Positions 3,464-56,752 of a DNA stretch of 64,000 bases are shown here, in pieces. The stretch comes from Naegleria gruberi (lineage: Eukaryota): NCBI GenBank assembly GCA_000004985.1, contig GG738879.1; one strand, written 5' to 3'. Both the position numbers and the translations under genes were made by a program. The notes beneath the pieces were generated by a model. The model saw nothing but the letters and a program-made list of their open reading frames with translations, did no database searches and had not been told where the DNA came from. Within the stretch, counting starts at the first letter, position 1, and each line of letters begins with the position of its first letter.

Positions 3464-3534
3464 AGGGAGATAGTTCAGTGGTAGAACATGGGATTGTGGT
3501 TCCTAAGATCAGGGTTCGATTCCCTGTCTTCCTA
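3464..3534 (+). tRNA. tRNA-His (anticodon GTG), 71 nt.
   Basis: Cloverleaf read directly from sequence: acceptor AGGGAGA/TCTTCCT, D-arm GTTC-AGTGGTA-GAAC, anticodon stem TGGGA/TCCTA with loop TTGTGGT (anticodon GTG), T-arm CAGGG-TTCGATT-CCCTG, discriminator A73. G-1 is not encoded, as in eukaryotic tRNA-His. A TTTT pol III terminator follows at 3539..3542. Confidence 0.85.
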
Positions 3535-3589
3535 CACCTTTTTAAATATTAATAATACAAGTTTATTGTAAGGCAGAGTCCAATTTAAA

Positions 3590-20016: not shown

Positions 20017-20089
20017 TACCGACAATGGGCTCGAACCCACGACCCCAGGATTAGAAGTCCTGTGCTCTATCCAACTGAGCTATGACGGC
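20017..20089 (-). tRNA. tRNA-Arg (anticodon TCT) candidate with an atypical T-arm and acceptor stem; possibly a tRNA pseudogene.
   Basis: Minus-strand sequence GCCGTCATAGCTCAGTTGGATAGAGCACAGGACTTCTAATCCTGGGGTCGTGGGTTCGAGCCCATTGTCGGTA. D-arm and anticodon arm (CAGGA-CTTCTAA-TCCTG) are canonical. The T-loop is only 6 nt (GTGGG-TTCGAG-CCCAT) and acceptor pair 5-68 is a U-U mismatch. A TTTTT run follows. Confidence 0.55.
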
Positions 20090-29476: not shown

Positions 29477-32400
29477 TTATAATTTTCTAATACCGAATGG
29501 ATCTGGGTCTGGATTGACCAAACTTCCACATGATGAAACGCCACCAAAGTATTTGCATTGTGAAACTGTCATTGATCTTGCAGTTGTTTCACTAGTTGCT
29601 GGAACTCCAACAAATCTCATATTATCCAAAAGGAATTCGACAAAGTTGGTTTGGTCTGCTAAATAGAATACTATTCTTTGAACATTTTGGATAGGAGCAA
29701 AACCAAGTTCAGTGAGTGGAATTCTTATACGTGTAACGGAAGTACCATCAATTCTGAGATATTGAGTGTGATTGGATTGGGTGGTGATTTTGGCAAAGTC
29801 AACCACTTTGGTATCATTCAAATATCCAAATATGAGGGTCAAACCTGAGACTGGACCTGTATTATTGACAGTCTTGATAAAGAATTCAAAGTATTTGAAG
29901 ATACTGGTATCAACATTGATTCTATTGGAACCAATCTTATTGAATGAAATATTACCCTTTCTAAAACCAAAATGTATTGAAGAATTTCCACAAATTGCTG
30001 GAGAGTAAGTCACATTCAAAAAACTATTTCTAACATCTGATGGAATATAGGTGTACATGTACCATTCATTGGTTAATTTCCTTCCTTCATCGTAAATTGA
30101 AATTACATGGGATGAGTTCTTCAGGTTCAAGCTATCACATGGCTTGACTGTGGACACTAATGGTGGTAAATTACAAATAACGGATGTAGCATTATTAATA
30201 TATAATTGAGCTCTCAAATGTCCATTTGGATTTTGTGTGGTTGACAACTTGACAAACATTTTGCCTTGAAGTAAATAGTTCCATTCATTGTAAGATAAAG
30301 TATATCCAAATCTACTTTGGGAGTATGGAACAATATTAGAGTCAGCAATGTACTCCTCCTTTCCAGGAAGTCCAAATCCAATATCAATAGATGTTACAAT
30401 ACTATTTAAATTATGTTGAAGTGTAAAATCGAGAGAATTTGTCCTATTATTGAAAAAAGCAAACACATATCCACCTCCACTAGCAGAGTTGGCTGCCAAA
30501 GGTTTTACACTAGCTTGTTGACTTGCTTCTAATCGCCCAACATATCGATCCTCTCTCATTAGAGCCTTGTAGGTACTTACTGGATTAATTGGATTACTGA
30601 ACTTTGATGGAGCACAGTTATTATTTGGACATGTAGCATTCACATAAAAGACACCACCTGAATAGTAATCAACAAAGGTATCAACCACTCTATATGATGT
30701 TCTTGCAGCATTATTTTTGACTTTCAAATACAAGTGCTCAGTGCTATCATCGTAGTAATAAAAAGTATTTTGTTCCTGCAACATGGTTGAGAAACTAGTG
30801 GTTCTAGTCATATTAATTGAGTTACCATATCTGATATTGAAAATCGTTCCCTTTGGGTATTGAATAGCAATTACAATCCAATCGTTTGTGGCACCAGAGT
30901 CAAGGAAAAAGCTCAAATCTTTTGGTGTTGGAATATCATTAGGCCAACGAATACCGTAAAATCCTCTGGCTATCATATTACTAAGCATGTAATATAAACC
31001 ATTTGCAATAGCGCCAATAACATTCGATTGACGATTTCTCAATAAATCAACAACGATCATTCTCGTAACTGCCTTGCCTGTGTTAATAATATCAGGTCTA
31101 CTAATACCATCACTTCCAGTTGTGTTCATGCCAGTAAAGTTATAATTCAAAACACGGAATTGAGAAAATGATTCACCAAAGAATGGGCATTGGTAAGCAT
31201 TCCAGTCATTTCTTGCTTGACATTGAGGGAATAACATGATTGATTCGTTACCAGTGATCCATCCTCCAATAGATGAAATATTTGTAATGGATCCATCGAC
31301 ATCCATCAATGCAATGGCTTTCTGATTATCATAAGTGGTTGGATAGTTCCATGGGAAAACCATATATCTATTGGCATTGACAAATTTCAAATCAGAATAT
31401 CTATTCTTTGTTTGAAGCTTAAAGTTGTTATTCAATGATGAGAGTGCACCAGCGTATTTGTAAGAATCGGTTAAAAAGTTAATAAATGTAATATTTCTTA
31501 AATATTGTGGACCGCCATTATCATATGTTTCATATCCCTTAATTAAATCCAAATTAGAAGAAATATATTGACCTGGTCTAGTTCTGTTACCATTATCAAT
31601 CTTAGGTCTAAAGGAATATTCACCAACATTTTCAGATTCACCAATAAAGATACTATCTTGAATAATATTCGGACCAGGTGGAGAATTCATTGCGACTCTA
31701 TTATCAGCCAAGTATAAATTTTTGAAACGTAACAATCCACCTCTACACCACAATCCATAACCTCTATTCTTGTAAGCAATGAATCCAACATAAAGTGCCT
31801 CAGTTACTCCAGAAGGAGGGTAATATCCTGCCTGTTCAGTCGAACCATTGGCCTTTTCCATATCGTCTATATGGAGAGCATTTCCTGATGAACTGTGGCC
31901 AACATTGTTTTCGAATGGTTTTGGAGGAGCAGTTCTTGGATTAACAGAACCAGCTGCATATCTGTTTGCACTCAATCCAGTCGGGAATGTTGGCATTGTA
32001 AACCAAAATGGGAAACGACCACCAACAGCATGATTACCAACGAATGTATTGTTTGGATTCGTAATCCAAAATACTGAAACATCAGAATCAGATAAAATGA
32101 TTTGACGAGGATTTTCTCTTGAGATTGGAATGGGGTCAACGCCCAAATTATTGTTAAATTCGTTTCCTACTTCAGAACCATCCTCTAAAAAGTACATATG
32201 ACCAAAAGCACGATAACAAACATTATTCTTCAGAAGAATATAATTAGTATCGTGAACAACAAAACATCTTTGGTAACTGTGATGAACTGTGTTATGTGAA
32301 ATTCAATCCAAATGGTTTGTTTTGTAACAAGTGGAAATGGAAACTATTGAAATTAATGAATATTAAATAACAACAGTTAGATAAATTATTAAAAACCAAA

Positions 32401-33352
32401 CATACCTATATCTTCCCATTAAACCTTGTTGACCAAATCTTGTAATTTCAACTCCTTCCATTTGGAACTTTTCAACCAAACGAATAATAAAGTGACCACC
32501 AAATAATGAACTCTCAGACGAATCATCCCCTCTAAAGACAATTCTTCTTGTTAATAAACCAACCTCTGCACGGATCTTTCCATTTGCACTTGCAAAGTGA
32601 GTAAAGTTCAATGCTCTATCAAGAACAACAGTCTTATTACCATTCAATAATTGAATAATCTTTCGTTCTTCATTTTGATTTGGGAATGGTTCTCCTCTAA
32701 TCCATCCCAAGGAAGCATTCTTTTCAACTCTATAATCATACACCTCACCATAGTCAGTAGAACTAACAACAATAGAATCACCAACATTCCAAGTAACGGC
32801 ATCTCTCAACTCAAGTTGATTAATTCCCTTGGATGCATTCTTAACAATTTCTGTCCAACTTGGACCATAAACTTTACCATACATTTGAACAATTGAACCA
32901 CTTAAGAATGCAATACCCTTAGAACCCAAACTTGCTCCATCATATGGATCTGAACCAATGTCATTAACTGAACTGCTCACACGATCGCCATAGAATGTAA
33001 CAACAACCTTTGAAGTGATTGGACAACTTGAACTTCCCATAATAAAACTACCATTTGATTCAACTCTAATAAAATTCAAATCCAAGCTCAAATTTACATT
33101 ATCAAATATTAAAGAACCACCTGATTTGACCGTAATCGAACGTAATCTATTGGGAGGAGAGACATTCATCTTGACAGCGTTTGAGATAACAATATCAGAA
33201 TTTGCTACATTCCATCCAGTCAAAGTATTAAAATTGACTAGACCAGCTTGTTGATATGGGCATTGTCCAAAAACCAACACACTTTCAATCATAAGTAAAC
33301 ACAATAAAGTGCTCACAAGTAAGATTGTAATACAATGTTTGTTGCAATACAT
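29477..33352 (-). CDS. CEMIP/TMEM2-like secreted protein (G8 domain, GG-type region, right-handed beta-helix), about 1250 aa. Exon 1 at 32406..33352, a 62-nt intron at 32344..32405, exon 2 at 29477..32343. Exon 2 contains an apparent +1 frameshift near 32299..32301.
   Basis: Signal peptide MYCNKHCITILLVSTLLCLLM. N-terminal G8-like region ends …GQQGLMGRY|(intron)|SFHFHLL… (GRYPxHFH motif). After a 1-nt frame change at a T-run, TVHHSYQRCFVVHDTNYILLKNNVCYRAFGHMYFLEDGSE aligns to human TMEM2/CEMIP SIHHTFSRCVTVHGSNGLLIKDVVGYNSLGHCFFTEDGPE. A further ~880 aa are continuous in one frame. Confidence 0.7.
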
Positions 33353-33973
33353 GTCTTGATTTTTTTTTCTGTGTTCTCATACCTTAATTCACACATTCTT
33401 GCTTTTCAATCTGTTTTTATGACGACAGTTGAAAGGTTTTAGACAAACACAAACGAATCAGCAATTTGAATTATTGGTTGGTAGGATGTGCTCCTTAATT
33501 ACAACAAAAATCCTTATTATTATGGTATTCAAGTCTGTTTGTTCTTCACCTTGATACCCAATCATCAATACGGAAGGTCCATTGAGCTGATTTTGGAAAT
33601 GATGAAACGTATGACAGGCACACCTATACATGTTCATGTGAATACAGTGTTACCAATACTCTAGTAATTTGCTAAATAAAATTACACTACAGTAATATAT
33701 TCTCTATCTGGTTGAAAAATACAAATAAATTGTTGTATAAAGCTGTTGAGAAACATTTGCTGTTGTTATGATGAAGATCAAAATCCAAGGTTTTGCAGAA
33801 GAATGCAAAACATCATCCCGAAGCTGCTAAATTTGTCATTTTTTATTTAAAATCCACAACAGCAACCATTCTGCCATTTCTTAAGGCTCACTCAAGCAGA
33901 CCAATGCTCCCTTATCGACCACTACTATTATTCAACATCGATCCAAGTGTGATATATTAGCATTACATAATAT

Positions 33974-34804
33974 CAGGGGGGCGGAAAGTTGGTATCAGCC
34001 CAGCGAAAATGTTGAGATTCTTCAAAGTGATTCCAAGTTGATATATGTTTTTACAATCAATATAGAATGCTAAACTACAATCGCTTCATAACTTATCATA
34101 AAATACTTGAATTTTACTATTATTGATTTAAATATTAAATAAATAATCTATTTTAAGAGAAATTAAACAAACTAGTCCATTCTGGGACGAACATAATATA
34201 TAATAATATTGTATAGATTTTATTGCATTATTATATATGTTAATAGATTACTTGTCCTAAAATAATTTGTTTTTATGAAGCAGATGTTGTGAACAAGTAA
34301 ATTTCTTATTTAAATTTTGAGCCATAAAAATATTGACTGATTAGGAAGTTTCAAAAACAATAAATATGGTGAATTAAAAAAATAGCTATCCTCAAATCAT
34401 TTTAAATTGCATTTACTCCAATATTTGAAGATATGAAACATTTTAACCTTTCTTTCGTGGTAGCTGCGTAATTTTAAAAATCAGTGTTTTTCGCTTGGTT
34501 GTTACTTTACTATTTTGAGGTTGATAACCAACATTCGTTCTTGAGATATGAGCAAAAACAAAAAAATAGCTATTCTCAAATCGTTCTAAATCTTGTTTAC
34601 TGTTAAAAAAGACGATTTAATTTAAATAATTCTACCATTTCGTGGTAGCTGATTACAAAGTTTAATAGTGTATGAATTCATTGAGTTACTTTTCTTGCTG
34701 CAAAAAATGTCAAACTCAAAAATAAACTACAGATTACAAAATATTTGTTTATTGTGTTCATTTTTTCCTTTACTCAACATTTTTCTTCACTTTCCGCCCC
34801 CCTG
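33974..34804. mobile_element. Non-autonomous hAT-like DNA transposon (MITE), 831 bp. Perfect 16-bp TIRs CAGGGGGGCGGAAAGT at 33974..33989 and 34789..34804 (inverted), flanked by an 8-bp target-site duplication CATAATAT at 33966..33973 and 34805..34812.
   Basis: Read directly from sequence. The GC-rich 16-mer and its exact reverse complement bracket an AT-rich, ORF-free interior. Both are immediately abutted by identical direct CATAATAT octamers. An 8-bp TSD with a TIR beginning CAG is typical of the hAT superfamily. Confidence 0.6.
34375..34745. repeat. Internal tandem duplication of about 184 bp inside the MITE; two diverged units.
   Basis: AAAAAAATAGCTATCCTCAAATC… at 34375 recurs at 34559 (AAAAAAATAGCTATTCTCAAATC…). 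TTTCGTGGTAGCTG at 34453..34466 recurs at 34638..34651, with the same ~185-bp spacing. Confidence 0.5.
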
Positions 34805-34897
34805 CATAATATTTGAACACTCATCTTTTTTTCATAGTTGATCACTGCTGAAAGAACAAGCACTTCGATTTTCCACTCGAACTCTAGGAAGAAAAAA

Positions 34898-35665
34898 ATG
34901 CAACAAGAGCAAAAGGCGCCCACAACAGAGGAGAACAAGCAGAACATCAATGGTGATGAAATTCCAAAACTTTTCCATAGTGGTAAGGTGGTGAGAGGTC
35001 CTAGACACTTGAAACAAATCAAAAACCAGCAAACATTGGTGAGGGAGGAAAAGAAAAACCAATCATCACTTGAGAAGATACCAACAGAAATTACAAGTGA
35101 AGAGGATTATTGGAGTTTTAGAACAAATAAATTGCAACAGCAACGATCTGAAAGTTCTGCAAAGAAGACATGTTTGGATATTTATTCCAATGTAGTTCAC
35201 AAGTTGAAAGATGGTAGCGAAAAGGAGAATGAAATGCCATTAGCATTAGACAATAGTAATCGAGGGGTGAATACTCAATTATTCAGTGGATTAGTATTTT
35301 TCTTCAATAGCATACGAGGAAGTGGTCCAAATTCTCAATATAATCTAGTGAAATTGGCCTCTGTTCATGGAGCAACAGTACTGTAAGTTTTCTCATTCAA
35401 AATTTATTGAAACACTAACATTGAAAACAGACCAAATCCATCAAGAAAGAGAAAACTCACTCATGTCATTGCTTCCAACTTGCCAAACTCTAAAATTGAA
35501 AGAATGGAAAACAAGAAACACATTTCCAATCTTCATGTAAAATATGTCACTCCTTCATGGTTGACCGATTCAATTACACAAAATAAGGTACTTTCAGAGG
35601 CTTCCTATCTTCTCACCAAACCTAACTCTCCATCAACAACTAAATTCTTTACTATCAAAAAATAA
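34898..35665 (+). CDS. Small BRCT-domain protein, 239 aa. Two exons: join(34898..35382, 35431..35665).
   Basis: A 48-nt intron (GTAAGT..AACAG) joins …LFSGLVFFFNSIRGSGPNSQYNLVKLASVHGATV|L…KLTHVIASNLPNSKIERMENKKHISNLHVKYVTPSWLTDSI…, a typical BRCT fold signature. The N-terminal ~110 aa are charged and low-complexity. Confidence 0.65.
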
Positions 35666-35851
35666 TAATTATTGTTTTAATAATTGAAATTTTAAGGAAC
35701 TATCGAATTTGTGAAGTTAACATTATTGAACAATTTCATAATAAAATGATGGGTTTCCAATATTTCTTAATGAGACTATTTGGAAAGTGTGAAAGCCATT
35801 ACAATACTTCATCAAGAAATAATATTTAATAATTTATTTAAATTAAAAAAA

Positions 35852-38800
35852 ATGTCTAAAAAACAACCAAGCGAACTTTCTATTGATGATTTGCTTCGGG
35901 AAATTGATCAGACTGTTTATGAGCAACCAAAGGAAAATACTCGTGAGATTCCATTCCAAATCAGAGGAAGTGGTCTTGTAGGAGATGTTTCCTTGTACAA
36001 TGTTGGCTTTCAATTTGGCAATGATTACTTTAAACATGCCGAAAAACAAGGAAAGGAAGCCTTCTCATCAACTCACGTTCCATTCCCAAAACAATTGGAA
36101 CCATCCGAGTATATGAAACAAGCCTATTTGACACCTAAATTGGAAAATGCTCAAGAGGATTATCGTATCTTCCCTAGATTATTTAAACCAAACGAATTGT
36201 ATTCATTGGCTGTTTCCAAACCAAAATATGTTATTGAAACAGTTAAAGATCCATTCACTGGAAAAATTAAAGAATGCAAAGAGATTTATAGTCCACAAGC
36301 AAATGACACTTCAAAATCCTCAACATCATTATTGAGACAACCTGCTGCCAGTAAAGACTTTGTTAGAGGTAGCAGTCACAATGTTCCTTTCCATTTTGGA
36401 GGTATTGATAGAGATGAAGAAAGAGGAATTGAACAAGTTTTGGAAGGAGAAGCTGAAGCTAACAATGAACCTACTATTGTCAATGTCTTTGATAGACCAA
36501 TTGAAGAGGAATTGAAGTTATTATCTCAACAAGACAATGAAAAGGATTACTCTTCAGTCGTTGATGGTTTGGAAACAAGACCAAGTGGATTCAAACATGG
36601 TCTCTTCCATTCTGCCAACAAAAGTCAAGCTAATATTGACACTACTGATTTGAATGCTTTGGCTGTCGGTAAAAATCAACAAGGATTATTGGATGCCTAC
36701 AAGCAGGATATTTCTAATTACAATATTGATGGAAATGAAGAAGTTTTCTTGTCTGTCGAACAACAAAGAGAACTCAGAAGAAGAGAAGAATCTAGAAATA
36801 GAAAGGAACAATTACTCAATTTTACAGAAGTCTTTTCGTCAACACTATCTGATGATCCATTTGGAAATATTGAAGAAGATTACAGTGAAAATAACCAAAC
36901 TAATGGACAAGTTGCTACTTCTGGTAGCTCTCCAACTGTTCAAGCATCAGCTGAAGAAGAAAAACAAAAACAAGTTGCTGAAATTAGAAAAGTTAAAAAC
37001 AGATCTGAATATACTATTGATGATCTTTTGGATGCCGATGAAGATGTCTTGTATTCCTCATTTATCAAGAAGCAAGGTAAAAGACAAAAAGAAAATGAAT
37101 ATGCCATCATGTCTCGTGTTGATGTTTCTAACTTTAAGCAATTAGTCCCAGAAATGGCTATTCAATATCCTTTTGATTTGGATATTTTCCAAAAAGAAGC
37201 TGTTTACCACTTGGAAAATAATGAAAGCGTCTTTGTTTCTGCCCACACTAGTGCTGGTAAAACTGTTGTTGCCGAATATGCTATTGCTCTGGCACAAAAA
37301 CACTTGACAAGAGTTATCTATACCTCTCCAATCAAAACTCTATCTAACCAAAAGTTCCGTGAATTCAAAAAGACCTTTGGTGATGTTGGTATCTTAACAG
37401 GTGATGTTCAAATCAATCCAACTGCTACTTGCTTAATCATGACAACAGAAATTTTGCGTTCCATGTTATATAAGGGTGCTGACTTGATCAGAGATGTTGA
37501 ATGGGTCATTTTCGATGAAGTTCACTACGTCAACGATCCTGAAAGAGGTGTCGTTTGGGAAGAAGTTATTATTATGCTTCCAAAACATATTAACCTTATT
37601 TTACTCTCAGCTACAATTCCAAATACCTATGACTTTGCTGATTGGGTTGGTAGAACCAAGAAAAAGAAGATTCACGTCATTCAAACATTCAAGAGACCTG
37701 TTCCTCTTGAACATCATTTGTACTATAATGGAAATATTTACAAGATTGTCGATTCCAATTCTAAATTCCTTGCTGCAGGTTATAGATCTGCTCTTTCAGC
37801 TGAAGAAGAAAAGGAAGAAAAGAATAAGAGTAGAGGTGGATTCAAAAAGACACCATATTCCAAGCTGATTGAAACTCTCAATAAGAAGAATTTACTTCCT
37901 GCTGTTACTTTCGTTTTCAGTAGAAAACAATGTGAAGATATCGCCATTTCTCTTCAAAATACAGATCTCAATGAGGCTGGAGAAAAGAATGAGATTCACA
38001 GATTTATTAATCAATCAGTTTCCAGATTGAAGGGATCTGATAAGGAATTACCTCAAATTGTGAGAATTTCTGACTTGCTCAAGAGAGGTATTGGTATTCA
38101 CCACTCTGGTTTATTACCAATCGTTAAGGAAATTGTAGAAATTTTGTTTTCAAAAGGTCTTATCAAGGTACTCTTTGCTACAGAAACATTTGCTATGGGT
38201 GTTAACAGTCCAACAAAGACTGTAGTTTTCAACACATTATGGAAGTTTGATGGTAGAGACAAGAGAGATTTATTGTCTGGAGAATATATTCAAATGAGTG
38301 GTAGAGCTGGTAGAAGAGGTCTCGATACTGTTGGTAACGTTATTATCAATTGTGCTTCTGAAATTCCTGAAGAACCTCTTCTCCAAAGATTAATCCTTGG
38401 TAAAGCAACTCACCTTGAAAGTAAATTCAAGTTGAGTTACAACATGATTTTGAACTTGATGAGAGTTGAAGATTTCAAGATTCAAGACATGATTAAGAGA
38501 TCCTTCTCTGAGAGCAGAACTCAACAAATTGTACCAAACAAGGAACTTTTGCTTAAGAGTAAGGAAAAGTTGGCAGAAATTGAGAATATTGATTGTATTA
38601 ACGGAGAACCTGCTATCGAACCATTCTATGCTGTTGCAAGAGATTTAGAAGATTTGAACTACAAGATTACAATGGAAGTCATGACAAATTCAAAGGTTGG
38701 AACATTGTTAACATTTGGTAGAGTTGTTGTTGCTAGATACAAGCTTGGATATACTTTGGCCATTCTTGTTCGTCAAGATACTTCAACCACCAATAAGGAT

Positions 38801-39919
38801 GACAAATTCTACGTACTTTTGGCTGTCAAACTTAATCCATCATTTGAAAGAAGAAAACAAATCATTCCAATCCCAACTGTTTCTGGACTCCCAGAATTTT
38901 CTCCAATCTTGCTTCCTCAAACTGGAGAGCTTAGTACTTTGATTGCTTGTCCTTCCTATGATATTTTAACAATTTGTAATGAAAAACTCAACTTGACATC
39001 ATCCATGGAAGAATTTAGTTTCCATAAGGAAACATCAGAAATGAGAGCAGCTGCCAATCAACTTATCAACATTTGGAAAGAAAAACCACCAACACCAATG
39101 AATATCGTTAAGGAACTCAAATTATCATCCCTAGAATTTACTGAAGCACTGTCAAAGAGACAACAAATTATTCTCAAGCTTCAAGAAAACAAGTGTAACA
39201 TTTGTCCTAAATTGGAGGAACACTTTGATAAGATTGATAAGCAACACAAGATTAGACAAGGTCTCGATAAATTGAGATATGCCCTTTCAGATGAAAACTT
39301 GGAATTGATGCCAGAAGTTAGAAAGAGAATCAAGGTACTCAAATTGTTGAAATATGTAGATATTGATGAAACTGTACAATTGAAGGGTAGAGTTGCTTGC
39401 GAATTGAACTCTTGTGATGAAATGTTAGTTACTGAAATGATCTTTGAAAACTTCTTTACAACCATGACATGTGAAGAAGCTGTTGCCGTTCTCTCATGTT
39501 TGGTTTGTCAATCAAGAGGAGAATCAGAAGAACCAACCCTCACCAAGAGATTACAAGAATTGAAAGATAAGGTTTCAAACTTGGCTCTCAGTCTTGGTCA
39601 ACTTCAAATGGAAAATGGTTTAGACACAAGCCCAACTGATTACCTCTCCAAGACTCTTAACTTCTCAATGATGGAAGTTGCCTATGAATGGGCAATGGGA
39701 CAAGAATTCAAAGACATTTGTTCTCTCACAACCATTCCAGAAGGTACTGTTGTGAGAAGTATTTCACAATTGGATCAAGCACTTCGTGATGTAAGAAATG
39801 CTGCTCGTATTATTGGTGATACCAACCTTTACCAAAAGATGGAAGAATCCTCTAGAAAGATTCGTCGTGATATTATCTTTGCGGCATCATTATTCTTATT
39901 CCCGACTGATGAGAAATAA
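35852..39919 (+). CDS. Ski2-like DExH-box RNA helicase (exosome cofactor, SKI2/SKIV2L family), 1355 aa, single exon.
   Basis: Motifs: I (AHTSAGKTVVAEYAIALAQ), Ia, II (DEVHYVNDPERGVVWEEVI), III (LSATIPN), V and VI (QMSGRAGRRGLD). Ski2-type C-terminal helical bundle ending …RKIRRDIIFAASLFL, close to the family C-terminus. The ~440-aa N-terminal region fits Ski2 rather than Mtr4. ATG at 35852; the track M at 35780 is TTG. Confidence 0.9.
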   Translation: MSKKQPSELSIDDLLREIDQTVYEQPKENTREIPFQIRGSGLVGDVSLYNVGFQFGNDYFKHAEKQGKEAFSSTHVPFPKQLEPSEYMKQAYLTPKLENAQEDYRIFPRLFKPNELYSLAVSKPKYVIETVKDPFTGKIKECKEIYSPQANDTSKSSTSLLRQPAASKDFVRGSSHNVPFHFGGIDRDEERGIEQVLEGEAEANNEPTIVNVFDRPIEEELKLLSQQDNEKDYSSVVDGLETRPSGFKHGLFHSANKSQANIDTTDLNALAVGKNQQGLLDAYKQDISNYNIDGNEEVFLSVEQQRELRRREESRNRKEQLLNFTEVFSSTLSDDPFGNIEEDYSENNQTNGQVATSGSSPTVQASAEEEKQKQVAEIRKVKNRSEYTIDDLLDADEDVLYSSFIKKQGKRQKENEYAIMSRVDVSNFKQLVPEMAIQYPFDLDIFQKEAVYHLENNESVFVSAHTSAGKTVVAEYAIALAQKHLTRVIYTSPIKTLSNQKFREFKKTFGDVGILTGDVQINPTATCLIMTTEILRSMLYKGADLIRDVEWVIFDEVHYVNDPERGVVWEEVIIMLPKHINLILLSATIPNTYDFADWVGRTKKKKIHVIQTFKRPVPLEHHLYYNGNIYKIVDSNSKFLAAGYRSALSAEEEKEEKNKSRGGFKKTPYSKLIETLNKKNLLPAVTFVFSRKQCEDIAISLQNTDLNEAGEKNEIHRFINQSVSRLKGSDKELPQIVRISDLLKRGIGIHHSGLLPIVKEIVEILFSKGLIKVLFATETFAMGVNSPTKTVVFNTLWKFDGRDKRDLLSGEYIQMSGRAGRRGLDTVGNVIINCASEIPEEPLLQRLILGKATHLESKFKLSYNMILNLMRVEDFKIQDMIKRSFSESRTQQIVPNKELLLKSKEKLAEIENIDCINGEPAIEPFYAVARDLEDLNYKITMEVMTNSKVGTLLTFGRVVVARYKLGYTLAILVRQDTSTTNKDDKFYVLLAVKLNPSFERRKQIIPIPTVSGLPEFSPILLPQTGELSTLIACPSYDILTICNEKLNLTSSMEEFSFHKETSEMRAAANQLINIWKEKPPTPMNIVKELKLSSLEFTEALSKRQQIILKLQENKCNICPKLEEHFDKIDKQHKIRQGLDKLRYALSDENLELMPEVRKRIKVLKLLKYVDIDETVQLKGRVACELNSCDEMLVTEMIFENFFTTMTCEEAVAVLSCLVCQSRGESEEPTLTKRLQELKDKVSNLALSLGQLQMENGLDTSPTDYLSKTLNFSMMEVAYEWAMGQEFKDICSLTTIPEGTVVRSISQLDQALRDVRNAARIIGDTNLYQKMEESSRKIRRDIIFAASLFLFPTDEK

Positions 39920-42640: not shown

Positions 42641-44161
42641 TCATTCATCATCATCTTCATTCTCTTCAGATTTAACTCGAGTCAAACGTTTGAGAGATTT
42701 CTTCAATTTTTGCAATTCTGTTGCCTCAACATACATTCCAATTGTAAATTCTTCCAATCTTCCAAAAGATTCATTCTTTCCCAAAGTAGTCAAGAAACTT
42801 TTGACTTTTCCTTGTAAGTACATAATGTACAAACTCTTCAAATTTGGAAAGTGAGTAGATTTTGGAAGTAATAGATTATCCTTGCTTTCAATTTGAAAAC
42901 CCAAGTGTAAATGTTCCAATTTTGTAAATTTGTCACTTGCACAAAATTCCTTAAATCCAATTTCTGAGTGATTAAATTCTTGGTAGTTAATTTTGAAAGA
43001 TTTCAAGTTTTCAAATTGGCTTTCTGCTAATAGTTTGAAAACTGAAGATTCTTCATCGATTCCCATATCAATTTTACATTCCAATTCAGTTAATCCTTTC
43101 CAGGAAGGATTAGAACAAACTTGTTTGAAACATTCATGTGAAATATCAATTAATACGAGAGATTTGATATTGGAAATACTTTCATTCTTCAATAGAGCAT
43201 CCAAACTTTGCATTGTACTACTAAATTTCAATCTAATACTTTCCAATTTTGGAAAATCAGATTTAACAAATTCACAAATAAGGCGATCAAAATCTTCCTC
43301 TTCTGGAACTTCCTCTTCCACATCCATGAAATATTCATTATTACAAATTTCAAGAGTTTTCAATTGTGGACATGAAACTTTTCTTTTGATAAATGGAATG
43401 CAGAGTGATGTTGGTCCATGCATGTTTAGTTTAAAAGTTTCCAATGTTGGAATTGACATAGTTTCGTATATTTGATCTGCTTTCAATGATTTTTTGGTTG
43501 AACTAACAGTTGCAATGTAAAGAGATTTGAGGTTTGTTAAGGATTTGAGTGGTGAGAGATCAGAACCTGAAAATGTAATTTGTAATTCTTCTAAATTAGG
43601 AAAATTGTTTACAATTTCTTGGCAAGATTTGATTGGTGAATGAAGAGTAAGAGATTTCAGAGTTGGGATTTCACAGCTGAATTCGAAAGATGCTTGTCGT
43701 CCTTCTATAACAAGTTTCTTCAATTCTGAAAACTTGGGAATCGTCAACTTTCCAGAAACTGGAAACGAAAGTTCAATTACTTTTGGACAATTTTCCATCA
43801 ATGTCTTTGCCTCCTTTGCATTGATTCCATTAATAATCTTAATAATTCTAAACTGTTCACAATTTCTATTCGAATTTAACCAACCATTAAATTTGTTTCG
43901 AATATCTTCATCTAATTCTTCACTTTCAAACTCCGATTCTTCAAATTCTTCTTCTTCACCTGGGGATGATAAAACTAAACTTCCCAATGTCAATGTGTGT
44001 AATTGTTCAACTCCAGAACGAAATTGCTTGCAAGTTGTCATTAATTCGAAAGGTTCGAAATTTGACAGGTAGGAAAAGATGTTTACCATGCAATCATCAC
44101 CAATTTGATGAAGATTAGTTTTGACAGCTTCAACTTTACGTTTCTTGGTTTGTGGAGCCAT
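42641..44161 (-). CDS. F-box / leucine-rich-repeat protein with an acidic C-terminal tail, 506 aa.
   Basis: N-terminal F-box-like IGDDCMVNIFSYLSNFEPFELMTTCKQF, then ~14 LRR-like units (LxxLxLxx…). Stop at 42641..42643, only 8 bp from the convergent kinase-like gene's stop. Confidence 0.6.
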   Translation of the reverse strand: MAPQTKKRKVEAVKTNLHQIGDDCMVNIFSYLSNFEPFELMTTCKQFRSGVEQLHTLTLGSLVLSSPGEEEEFEESEFESEELDEDIRNKFNGWLNSNRNCEQFRIIKIINGINAKEAKTLMENCPKVIELSFPVSGKLTIPKFSELKKLVIEGRQASFEFSCEIPTLKSLTLHSPIKSCQEIVNNFPNLEELQITFSGSDLSPLKSLTNLKSLYIATVSSTKKSLKADQIYETMSIPTLETFKLNMHGPTSLCIPFIKRKVSCPQLKTLEICNNEYFMDVEEEVPEEEDFDRLICEFVKSDFPKLESIRLKFSSTMQSLDALLKNESISNIKSLVLIDISHECFKQVCSNPSWKGLTELECKIDMGIDEESSVFKLLAESQFENLKSFKINYQEFNHSEIGFKEFCASDKFTKLEHLHLGFQIESKDNLLLPKSTHFPNLKSLYIMYLQGKVKSFLTTLGKNESFGRLEEFTIGMYVEATELQKLKKSLKRLTRVKSEENEDDDE

Positions 44162-45889: not shown

Positions 45890-48800
45890 CTACTTATAAG
45901 AACCACCTGAAGATGCAAGAAGACGTGTTAATCTAACATCTGATTCAAATACTTTCTCATAGACCTGTAAAGAATCCAATAATCTTTCCACTAGCTCATC
46001 AGGGGAGAGTCTGTCCACTTCTGGTTCAATAAATACAGGATTTTGAAATTGTCTCATATAAGCATCCATATCAATATTGCTATGTCTTGGTTCGACATCC
46101 TCTTCTTGATCGACTAATATCTCATCGTTTGAATCATAAACAATATCCACTGGAGTAGATGTTTGAACCTCGATTGATCTTCCTTTTCCACATTCTTCAA
46201 AAATTAAAGGTTGAGTCTGACAAGAAGTGGAACATTGTTTGGATTTCAACTTTGAAACAATTTCCAGACCTTGCGGTTTGCATTCCTTGTATTGTTTGAT
46301 TTCTTCTTTAATTTTCTCCTTCTTATATCTCCTCTCTTTTTCAATTTCAGAATGTGATTTAGCTTTGATAGTACTGATAATGTTGAAGGGATCAACTTCA
46401 CTGGAAGCTATCTTTGATTTGTTTCGTTTGTAGGATGAAGCTAATTTGTCATTTTTAGAATTTTTAAGGCTCAAGAACACTTGTTTCTTAATTTCTTCCT
46501 TTTTCTTTCTAACTTCTTCCAATAAAACTGAAGTTTCAGAATCATTTTCTATACTTAGTAAACTGGCCGAGGAAATATCAGAGCTTACTGAACTTGTTTC
46601 ATTTGATGTTATTTTACTCTTACTTCTACTTTCTCTTCCATAATCCGAACTTGTTCTCAGTGAACTAATACTTGATGTAGATTGTCTCAATGAAGGTTTG
46701 GACTTCCTTTGATTTTTCCTTTTGTCTCTTATTTGCACGTCTTTTCTCGGGTATTTCAGTTTGTTCCTCCTCTCGTACATGTTTTTTTGAAAAATATGAA
46801 ATCTTTTCAATTTCAGAAGAACCTGTCACTGAAGGAGATGATATCATTTCTATAGAGAATGAGTTATAGTTAGGGTCGATCTGTATGTTTCGTTCCTTAG
46901 GTTTAGAAAAATGGAGCTCTATTTCTTTTGCATTGTCTTTTTTGATTAGTTCATCGCTGAAAATGGCTGTTGAAGGATTGAATGATGCATGTTCATGGAT
47001 ATCTTCTATATTATCCAATGAATTTTCACTTGATGAATCAACAATAATTGAAGATTCTGAATTAGTCCCTTCAGACAATTCGGAATTGTTAATCACAACC
47101 TTATTTGATTCCGAGTTATGATATGTCTCATACTCAACTGGATTGAAATATCTTTGTTTGGATTCTAAAGTTATGACTATAGGATCCAAATTACTGTTGT
47201 CTAGAGAAGAGGACTCACTATCATTTCTTTTAAGTTGACTGGAAAATGGATGGAGAGAAGATCTGTCACTCTTAATGCTATATTCACTGTACACTACGGA
47301 AGGTGAAGAAGCAATTGTTTCTGAAAGTGTATCCTGGTGAGGAGAAGTTGGCGCTTCTGTTTTAATGTTTTCGGAAGATGAGGTTTCTTCTAAATTTACA
47401 GGGATAGGAGCCTCAACAAGAACCTCTTTTTTTTCGGGTGAGGCCTTTTCCTTTCTTTCTTTTGAAGGGAATTGAGGAAGCATTCTATTTGATATTGACT
47501 TTTCGCTTGATGATATAGTAGGTTTTGATTCAGTTGGTTCTCTTGTGTCATAAGTTGTGTCAATCGGTTTAGATGGAACCTCTTCTTTAGCTTTACGGGC
47601 ACTTGATATCAGTTGTAGGGCATTCTCAATAATTTTTCTTCTCTCAATATCTGCTTCTGTCAACCGTGGTTCAATGCTGGATATATCATTATATGTACAA
47701 TCAACATGTTTGGGTATTGGAAATGAAAAATCCCTTATTTCAGACTTCCCCTTCAAATATTCCTTATTATTTTCAACTGGTTTTGCTGGTGCTGACCAAA
47801 GAGACCACACAGAACTGTTTGTACTCTCAGATTCTTCGTCCATAAATGCATTAAGTGGACTGTCTTTCTTAATTTTGTGAAGGTTCCTTCTTCTTAGTTC
47901 CCTAGCCAACTCCTGTGCTGCTTCTTTCAGCTTTTTCTTTCTTTCGTGGTCAACTGCAAGTTTTGATCTCACTTTTTTCCCAAAATCTTTCACTCTTTTT
48001 CTACTGTCTGTGTTTTCATTTCCTTCAAGTTGTTCTTTAAGAAATTGAGGCATTTCTGGCTTCTTTTTCTTTGACTTTTCGTCTTCAGGAGGTGGAGGAG
48101 GGTTTGTGAACAATTCATGAATGTATTCATCTAGTCTCTTTAGAGCATCCTTTTTTCCAATTTTCTTTTGAATTTCCTCTTGCTTTTTTTGTTCAGCTAG
48201 CTTTTTGTCATTAACTTGCTTTTGCTTCATAAACTCTTTCACTTTTTCCTCATCATATGGTTTTTTCCTCATGTTATTATTTCGAGGAGGTCTCATTCTA
48301 AGTTTTTCCTTCTCCTTTCTTCTCTTCTCCTTCATATATTCTCTAATTTCATTTTCATCATAGAACTTTTGTCTATTCTCGTAATATGGCTTGTAGATGT
48401 ATTCTTCTACAGTAGTGAATGGTTTCTTTTTCTCTGTGCTTGAAGGTCTGCTTGATGGTTTCTTTTTCTCAGCAGTCTTTTCTGAGTTTTGAGTGGTAGG
48501 TCTTGAGGCTGATTTTGGTCTTTCTCTTACTATACTTTTTAGTTCCTGAGGAGGTGATGATGTGTTAATTACATTAGTTTGTTGATTGTTTTCTTGGTTG
48601 AGTTGGGGTTGTTCACATACTTGTTCGGTAGCTTGTGGTTCTTGAAGCATTTCTGGATTTGTTTCCTCATTACTTTCTTGAGGAGCTTGGGTATCACTTT
48701 CATAAGATCCATAAGGATCAAAATCTTCAAATTGTGAATCGTCTTCCTGTGTTTCCTCTTGGTTTTTCATTTCTGTTGGAGTGTTTCCCTCGCAATGTTG

Positions 48801-49166
48801 CTCCTCTTCTGTTGCTTGTGCTACTTCGACTATTTGTTCTTCGTAAGGATTTTCCTCATTCTGCTGTTCCTCCTCTTCATAATTTTCAAAATGCTCCTCC
48901 TCTGCATAATGTTCCTCTTCATTGGGTTGTTCTTCGTACGACTGATATGTTTCTTGAGGATGTTCCTCTTCTGTACCAGGATGATACATTTCCTCCTCAT
49001 AGGGATTATTCTCTGGATGGTCATCGTACACATCACCTCCAAAATTATGTTCATAATCATCATGATGATCATCTCCTACATCCCCTGCATAATGTTGCTC
49101 TTCCTCGTCATGATGAAAATCATTGTCATAGAAATCCTCTCCTAAATCCTCAAGTGAATCATCCAT
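45890..49166 (-). CDS. Large low-complexity protein: acidic/aromatic N-terminus (E/Y/H-rich), K/R/E-rich middle, Ser-rich and acidic C-terminus. Present as two long minus-strand ORFs, 46665..49166 and 45890..46810, overlapping by 146 nt in frames offset by +1.
   Basis: The 833-aa and 306-aa ORFs are contiguous on the same strand with similar composition. The frame change must lie within 46665..46810, which contains a T7/A7 homopolymer at 46782..46788. One gene of about 1130 aa is the likeliest reading. Confidence 0.5.
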
Positions 49167-51612: not shown

Positions 51613-52176
51613 CTACAAGCTTTGAGATTTTCTATAATAATCTAAAAATCCAGAAAGTGATTTTTCAAAAAGGTCATTCCATCTATTAGAAACCAATCCC
51701 TTAACTAAGAAAATTGGCATTCCATGGAAAACTTCAACATTGGTAACTTCCAATTTTTCAGAATCTAAACATTCAAACGACCAAAGGTGGCATGCTGCAA
51801 TTCCTCCTTCCTCTTTGTTCCACATAATTTTTGCATGATTTTCTGATATTTCATTCACTGCAACCTGCTCATTGGAAACTTGTTGGCCAACAGGGAAACC
51901 CAAATTGAGAGTTTGTGTAAATTTTGTACCAACTGAAAGAGTTTTAGAATTGTCATCTGAATATTGAGCACTGGCATGCAATGGAACTGACCATTCTTTC
52001 CACAAATCCAATCTCTGGAATAATTTGTAAAGTTCTTGCATTGTCTGTTGTGAATTAGTACATGGAAGAATTGCAGAGCTGCCAACAATTTGAGTTTTCA
52101 TTGAAGGTTCTTTCAATTTCAATATCTCTAAAGCATATTTGACTTGTTTGTGATCCTTGGTTACTCTTCTAATCAT
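51613..52176 (-). CDS. Hypothetical protein of 187 aa.
   Basis: Intact ORF with ATG at 52174..52176 (minus). No confident family call. Confidence 0.4.
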   Translation of the reverse strand: MIRRVTKDHKQVKYALEILKLKEPSMKTQIVGSSAILPCTNSQQTMQELYKLFQRLDLWKEWSVPLHASAQYSDDNSKTLSVGTKFTQTLNLGFPVGQQVSNEQVAVNEISENHAKIMWNKEEGGIAACHLWSFECLDSEKLEVTNVEVFHGMPIFLVKGLVSNRWNDLFEKSLSGFLDYYRKSQSL

Positions 52177-52607
52177 TGTTATTATTTGTTTTTGTTGAAT
52201 TTGAAATTTTAATAAACGTGTTCAATGCCTATTTATTCAGTTCAGAAATTTGTGCGTTTGAGAGTCGCATCAATGCATTCTTGGTTTATTGTGACCGCTC
52301 AAATTGGCGCATACTTTTTTTCGATATCGAAACTGTAAAGAACCATTGTACAATGGTTCAAATAATTGAAAGATTGTATCTTAAGATATTAATGATACTG
52401 CAATATTTACTAGAGGCTAAAAATTAAATATTAGTAGTAACCATCAATTAGAATACAAAATGGTTATTGAAGGAAGGGCACCTAGGGTGATGACCGGAGT
52501 TCTTGTAAGCCTACAGTCACACACATTAATCTCTTTGATGGATTCTCTCTTGTTGGAAAGTTGTTCTTCTTGTATTTCGAAGGTAGATTTTTTGTAACCA
52601 CAAAAAA

Positions 52608-56424: not shown

Positions 56425-56752
56425 GTCTCTTTAGCGAGAAAACACATTAATTTATTTAATAAAAATATTTATTCATTCATCAATCTATGTCACAACTGGT
56501 GATGATGTTGAAATTTATATGATTTGACATCTGTTTCTAGTTAATGTTTGAATAAGGTAACCTTTGTTTGAACTCTTATTCTCATGGAGAAATTACCCAG
56601 AGAAACTGAAATAATTTAGAAAGTGAATTAAAGAAGGAAAGGATGAGAACAATAAGAAACAGAGAACACTTAAATAATTTCTTAAGTTATGAAGCCAAAT
56701 TTCAAGAGAAAGGGAAGTCCAAATTTGGAAAACAAATAATAACAAGCCAGAA

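Follow-up and report, generated by a model that had tools for sequence, protein, structure and literature searches.

Genomic Setting of the Element

The sequence studied here is a stretch of 64,000 nucleotides from contig GG738879.1 of Naegleria gruberi (GenBank assembly GCA_000004985.1), the whole of which is hereafter referred to as the window. It is characterized by long ORFs and short introns, and its GC content of 33.6% falls within the range of 33–37% known for the genus Naegleria (PMC12482156). A CEMIP/G8-like gene and a BRCT-domain gene are divergently oriented on either side of an intergenic gap in this window, and the gap harbors an 831-bp segment bounded by inverted and direct repeats. 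The features of the locus, in which TIR and TSD denote terminal inverted repeat and target-site duplication, respectively, are as follows (positions are those of the window):

29477–33352, minus strand: CEMIP/G8-like gene with two long exons (domains G8, CEMIP beta-helix, and CEMIP_X; ATG at 33352)
33966–33973, no strand assigned: left TSD, CATAATAT, same as 34805–34812 and adjoining the left TIR
33974–34804, no strand assigned: whole element, 831 bp, 26.8% GC, without coding capacity (stops in six frames; no Rfam match, no tRNA)
33974–33989, plus strand: left TIR, CAGGGGGGCGGAAAGT, 16 bp, 69% GC, one half of a 100% complementary pair
34006–34016, plus strand: AAAATGTTGAG, the subterminal inverted repeat of the left end, separated from the TIR by 16 nt and a putative second binding site of the transposase
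34376–34466, plus strand: internal repeat unit A (42-nt block 34376–34417 and 14-nt block 34453–34466)
34560–34651, plus strand: internal repeat unit B (42-nt block 34560–34601, 83% identical to that of A, and 14-nt block 34638–34651, 100% identical)
34773–34783, minus strand: the subterminal inverted repeat of the right end, which is AAAATGTTGAG in reverse complement and is separated from the TIR by 5 nt
34789–34804, minus strand: right TIR, reading ACTTTCCGCCCCCCTG on the plus strand (direct reading and repeat search)
34805–34812, no strand assigned: right TSD, CATAATAT, second copy of the 8-nt direct repeat found on both sides of the inverted repeat
34898–35665, plus strand: BRCT-domain gene with two exons and a short intron near 35387–35417 (Pfam BRCT, E = 3.7e-9 for the spliced model)

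The gap between the two genes, in which the preliminary description of this DNA had placed the element and to which it had given a length of 1.5 kb, was measured as 1545 bp of divergent intergenic sequence between the ATG codons of the CEMIP-like gene (33352) and the BRCT gene (34898). The left TSD begins 613 bp from the former ATG, and the right TSD ends 85 bp from the latter. The N-terminus of the BRCT gene product aligns with its N. fowleri orthologue, which has BRCT domains as well, and the Ski2-type helicase encoded at 35780–39919 shows 80% identity to the N. fowleri protein, with values of 81% for an environmental sequence and 71% for Willaertia magna. When the element and one copy of the TSD are subtracted, 706 bp of the gap are left, a length close to that of the gap preceding the orthologous BRCT gene of N. 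fowleri (828 bp). At this locus, for which N. fowleri was the only relative compared, the intergenic DNA of the two species gave no alignment, and the synteny breaks at the same gap.

Several further observations were made on the neighborhood. The synteny breakpoint relative to N. fowleri (VFQX01000074.1, 8125–8952) coincides with the element-bearing gap at 33353–34897. The BRCT, Ski2, and cytochrome b5 genes are collinear between the window and N. fowleri, and the N. fowleri genes directly upstream (SAM_1, formate/nitrite transporter, and TatD) map in inverted orientation to approximately 6.4–15.3 kb of the window, the part of the window from 15 to 34 kb being located elsewhere in N. fowleri. 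The left neighbor of the element (29477–33352, minus strand) is a large gene with CEMIP/G8/CHRD domains, and the corresponding position in N. fowleri is without such a gene. Since its two TSDs are identical, the element itself did not recombine ectopically after insertion. Two tRNA genes are also present in the window, namely His-GTG at 3464–3535 (plus strand) and Arg-TCT at 20017–20089 (minus strand), the latter of which overlaps the mechanical start of a WD40 ORF (20082) by 8 nt.

Terminal Structure

The 16-mer CAGGGGGGCGGAAAGT at 33974–33989 and its exact reverse complement at 34789–34804 were recovered alike by direct reading, a repeat search, and a motif search, and the octamer CATAATAT adjoins the outer end of each of them (33966–33973 and 34805–34812). 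Neither the TIR pair nor the TSD pair can be extended by even a single base. The plus strand consequently reads, from left to right, GCATTA, CATAATAT, CAGGGGGGCGGAAAGT, the interior, ACTTTCCGCCCCCCTG, CATAATAT, and TTGAAC. Both the perfect 16-bp TIRs and the identical 8-bp TSDs abutting them, as put forward in the preliminary description, were thereby verified to the base.

The resemblance of the termini extends further inward. The 11-mer AAAATGTTGAG lies inside the left TIR, and its reverse complement lies inside the right one. When the 60 nt inside each TIR were shuffled, 13 of 5000 shuffles produced a common word of at least 11 nt (p of about 0.003). The two ends of the element are related beyond the terminal 16 bp, because this inverted 11-mer is common to both termini. 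Subterminal repeats of this sort are expected at the transposase-binding ends of transposons (PMC3355664, PMC10368747).

Statistical Assessment of the Repeats

The likelihood that such an arrangement arises by accident was evaluated with 300 first-order Markov simulations of the 64-kb window as the null, inverted repeats being counted within 5 kb. Perfect inverted repeats of at least 16 nt occurred 0.42 times per simulated window, and the inverted repeat by itself is therefore unremarkable. This frequency favors the reading that a chance inverted repeat in ordinary AT-rich intergenic DNA happens to be flanked by a chance direct repeat, and so does the fact that a second copy was not found in the window or, among the matches listed, in public collections. 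In contrast, none of the 300 simulated windows contained an inverted repeat of at least 14 nt with an abutting direct repeat of at least 6 nt, and just one contained an inverted repeat of at least 12 nt with a direct repeat of at least 8 nt. The composition of the TIR also argues against an accidental origin: its 16-mer has a GC content of 69% in a window of 33.6% GC, the probability of meeting its reverse complement within 5 kb by chance is about 8e-8, and the chance inverted repeats in the window are AT-rich, unlike the TIR. In the real window, the element is the sole inverted repeat of at least 11 nt accompanied by a direct repeat of more than 5 nt. Together with the independent 11-nt subterminal inverted repeat described above, these statistics effectively refute the chance reading, the probability of which we regard as negligible.

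Two other inverted repeats in the window were recorded. The 17-nt perfect, AT-rich inverted repeat TTGTTATTATTTGTTTT (52176–52192 and 56729–56745) brackets a gene for a 1065-aa UPF0669-domain protein and is without a flanking duplication; as a window is expected to contain 0.42 repeats of this kind, it is compatible with chance. The window's only further candidate for a combined inverted and direct repeat is the 12-nt perfect inverted repeat CAATTTGAAAAC (42889–42900 and 43007–43018, 130 bp apart) with the 5-nt flanking direct repeat GCTTT, which sits in the ORF of an LRR protein (42641–44161) and probably reflects chance.

Interior and Coding Capacity

The body of the element is AT-rich (26.8% GC vs. 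33.6% for the window). Its six-frame translation revealed no coding remnant, with stops throughout every frame and a longest ATG-initiated ORF of 27 aa, and a search for RNA genes yielded neither an Rfam match at E values up to 1 nor a tRNA. The earlier characterization of the element as AT-rich and ORF-free was thus in good agreement with our results, whereas the 831 bp given there for the interior proved to be the length of the whole element including both TIRs, the interior itself measuring 799 bp. Likewise, the internal tandem duplication of about 184 bp that had been proposed proved to be overstated. Two short blocks of units A and B recur at a spacing of 184–185 bp, namely a 42-nt block (34376/34560; 83% identity) and a 14-nt block (34453/34638; 100% identity), but outside these blocks the identity of the units drops to approximately 53% (99 of 188 aligned columns), and no tandem repeat was reported here by Tandem Repeats Finder. 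Units A and B may go back to a partial duplication that occurred long ago, or they may be two occurrences of a bipartite motif.

The structure could in principle have an origin unrelated to transposition, i.e., an assembly or cloning artefact, or else a functional feature enclosed by a long-range stem, either a regulatory module of palindromic form or a gene for a non-coding RNA. The single strand indeed folds better than its shuffled counterparts (z = -3.5) with the termini paired, and the element lies in a divergent promoter region, both of which are in line with such an origin. The fold signal, however, is accounted for by the pairing of the TIRs and subterminal repeats, the Rfam search mentioned above gave no match, and an exact 8-bp duplication of flanking DNA at the ends of the repeat would remain unexplained both by an artefact and by a regulatory stem. 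We therefore consider a non-transposon origin very unlikely. The perfect 16-bp TIR and the perfect 8-bp TSD, which together exceed chance expectation, are the hallmarks of a class II TIR transposon, and the locus almost certainly represents a transposon insertion of the general cut-and-paste type. The earlier proposal that a non-autonomous element had been inserted here by cut-and-paste transposition is strongly supported by the TIR, the TSD, the additional inverted repeat near the termini, and the absence of coding capacity.

Search for Related Copies and a Partner Transposase

Within the 64-kb window, a second copy was detected neither with the TIR as a query allowing up to three mismatches nor by blastn of the whole element at a word size of 7. 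The composite end pattern consisting of the TIR, the gap, and the subterminal repeat gave 0 matches in the metagenome, viral, and prokaryote-genome collections. The 16-mer TIR alone matched 2 viral and at least 120 metagenome loci, the GC contents of which ranged from 39 to 75%, most of them exceeding 45% and all of them exceeding that of the window. These loci (at least 122) were rejected as relatives of the element: none of those listed aligns to it, and many share identical bacterial flanks, indicating chance matches. As a separate observation, many gut metagenome contigs share a conserved stretch of bacterial DNA, ctcaggcagaCAGGGGGGCGGAAAGTcattttatctcccgg..., which contains CAGGGGGGCGGAAAGT by coincidence and is unrelated to the Naegleria element; contigs with this sequence include loci L003, L006, L013, L020, L044, L058, and L061 along with others, from gut and other metagenomes.

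A transposase domain was found in none of the window ORFs of 150 aa or longer. A 3.1-kb candidate for an autonomous element, delimited by CAGGGG at 46000 and 49087, was also dismissed as a product of chance, since its ends have just 7 nt in common, lack a TSD, and both fall inside coding ORFs. The region in question (45890–49166, minus strand) contains ORFs of 833 and 306 aa without a Pfam match and has a strongly negative AT skew of -0.23. The 833-aa ORF was considered as a transposase and rejected, as it encodes instead a low-complexity protein that is highly acidic and then lysine-rich.

Superfamily Assignment

On balance, we favor the assignment of the element as a non-autonomous cut-and-paste DNA transposon of the hAT superfamily, which is probably correct. 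The terminal consensus of hAT transposons is YARNG, and the 16-bp TIR beginning with CAGGG agrees with a 5'-YARNG terminus as well as with a hAT TIR length of roughly 10–25 bp. The target motif of the Ac group is nTnnnnAn; CATAATAT, read from this single insertion, has A at position 7 and no T at position 2 (the reverse holding for the other strand). With respect to the Buster-group motif nnnTAnnn (PMC3517528), positions 4–5 are AA or TT and not TA, one insertion being too few for a consensus to be defined. The TIR length is that described for hAT elements (10–25 bp; PMC3942097), which usually make 8-bp TSDs (PMC1131882, PMC12730594), and the CATAATAT octamer on both sides of the element has this length, which is not exclusive to hAT. 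As for multiple short subterminal motifs of the Ac/Hermes kind, to which the BED domain of hAT transposases binds, no 4–6-mer was significantly enriched in the terminal 150 bp besides the TIR; AAGT/ACTT was present 8 times vs. 3.2 expected (p = 0.015, uncorrected), and nothing survived the correction for multiple testing. The hAT affiliation suggested in the preliminary description is hence plausible from the fit of the 8-bp TSD, the 16-bp TIR, and the CAGGG start, and is to be qualified in that P and Zisupton elements also make 8-bp TSDs and that the hAT target motifs are not matched in full.

The element might instead derive from another superfamily with 8-bp TSDs, such as P or Zisupton/KDZ, and be mobilized by the transposase proper to that superfamily, which would carry a THAP domain in the case of P and be a KDZ transposase in that of Zisupton/KDZ. 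An origin from a short-TIR MULE or from Merlin is less likely. The terminal consensus of the P superfamily, which Yuan and Wessler reportedly gave as CANRG in 2011, also fits CAGGG. Merlin and MULE termini usually start with G and MULE TSDs are usually 9–11 bp long, both of which speak against these two. P elements make 8-bp TSDs (PMC3698922), and the TSD length observed here is compatible with P (7–9 bp); the same is true of Zisupton, which makes 8-bp TSDs (PMC12730594). Moreover, BuT5, a non-coding element of about 1 kb with subterminal repeats and 8–9-bp TSDs, was recognized as a P-superfamily MITE only via its partner (PMC3698922), and among the window ORFs of at least 150 aa there is likewise no transposase linked to the present element. 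On the other hand, hAT is by far the commonest and most widespread superfamily with an 8-bp TSD, a 16-bp TIR lies in its typical range (PMC3942097), and the TIR of the hAT MITE Mar likewise opens with CAGGGG (PMC3517528). Taking both sides into account, we regard membership in one of these other superfamilies as possible, although not probable, and retain hAT as the preferred assignment.

Two further designations used for the element deserve comment. It is small and non-coding like a MITE, and its 831 bp are near the upper end of published MITE sizes (884 bp for Vege, PMC3517528; about 1 kb for BuT5, PMC3698922). The term MITE in the sense of a multi-copy family is weakly supported, with one copy present within the 64-kb window, and non-autonomous element is the safer name. 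The description of the insertion as recent is weakly supported as well, and its age is loosely bounded, because 0 differences in the 24 paired positions of the TIR and TSD still allow a pairwise divergence of up to about 12%.

Proposed Mobilization and Implications

We infer that the element would be mobilized in trans. A transposase encoded elsewhere in the genome would recognize the 16-bp TIRs and probably the 11-bp subterminal repeats too, excise the element, and join its 3' ends to the target DNA over an 8-bp stagger, after which gap repair would give rise to the CATAATAT duplication. Being non-coding, the element would depend wholly on such a trans-acting DDE transposase. If it belongs to hAT, this enzyme would be expected to combine a BED zinc finger and an RNase-H-like DDE core with a C-terminal hAT dimerization domain and to act via a flank-hairpin intermediate.

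Naegleria genomes are compact and repeat-poor, with repeats making up 2.5–8% (PMC6125883, PMC12482156); in N. lovaniensis, DNA transposons account for 1.25%. Our literature search found no paper on a hAT or MITE family in Naegleria, the genome papers reporting bulk repeat content alone (PMC6125883; PMC12482156). The element, which has probably been unannotated so far, belongs to a class that is thoroughly known. It is a result at the level of annotation and leaves the current understanding of transposons unchanged. Its structurally intact state, in a non-autonomous element, suggests that a compatible transposase was active in the lineage fairly recently, and CAGGGGGGCGGAAAGT can serve as an exact 16-bp probe in the search for this enzyme. 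Furthermore, the promoter of the BRCT gene may be altered, because just 85 bp of the original sequence in front of the gene remain after the insertion.

A more far-reaching interpretation, which we consider rather improbable, is that the element represents a still-active, undescribed hAT-like family in Naegleria, with the breakpoint in the gap possibly reflecting a transposon-linked rearrangement. Naegleria has few genetic tools, and if this interpretation were true, the autonomous partner could be an endogenous transposon tool in the genus. The position of the breakpoint could then reflect a role of transposons, or of the fragile or open sites they prefer, in the rearrangement of the Naegleria genome relative to N. 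fowleri.

Comparison With Known Transposons

Among the systems with which the element can be compared, Zisupton/KDZ transposons resemble it in their 8-bp TSDs (PMC12730594). BuT5, the P-superfamily MITE of the Drosophila repleta group, shares with it a non-coding body of about 1 kb, subterminal repeats, and TSDs of 8–9 bp (PMC3698922). The two differ in their termini, BuT5 having 3-bp TIRs and subterminal repeats of 16–17 bp and the Naegleria element having a perfect 16-bp TIR.

The Ac/Ds system of maize is similar to the element in its 8-bp TSD and in its short TIR beginning with CAGGG, the TIR of Ac being CAGGGATGAAA. In Ac/Ds, a short hexamer motif is present in many copies across approximately 200 bp at the ends, whereas the element has a single evident 11-mer pair, and, unlike in Ds-type elements, no relationship of its interior to a transposase gene is apparent. 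Dependence on subterminal sequences and mobilization in trans, which are general features of such systems (PMC3355664, PMC10368747), would by analogy be shared by the element.

A further parallel is offered by Mar, an AT-rich 610-bp hAT MITE of the Buster group in Drosophila willistoni with the TIR CAG(G/A)GGTAGGC and 8-bp TSDs (PMC3517528). The hosts differ, one being an insect and the other a heterolobosean amoeba, and the sequence similarity ends after the first six bases. The TSD consensus of Mar, nnnTAnnn, is not fitted by CATAATAT, and Mar is represented by dozens of copies and a relic full-length element, whereas the Naegleria element has one copy within the 64-kb window and no partner among the window ORFs of 150 aa or longer. 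Nevertheless, both are AT-rich, non-coding elements of a few hundred base pairs with short TIRs starting with CAGGGG and 8-bp TSDs, and Mar was itself first placed in the hAT superfamily from its TIR and TSD alone (PMC3517528).
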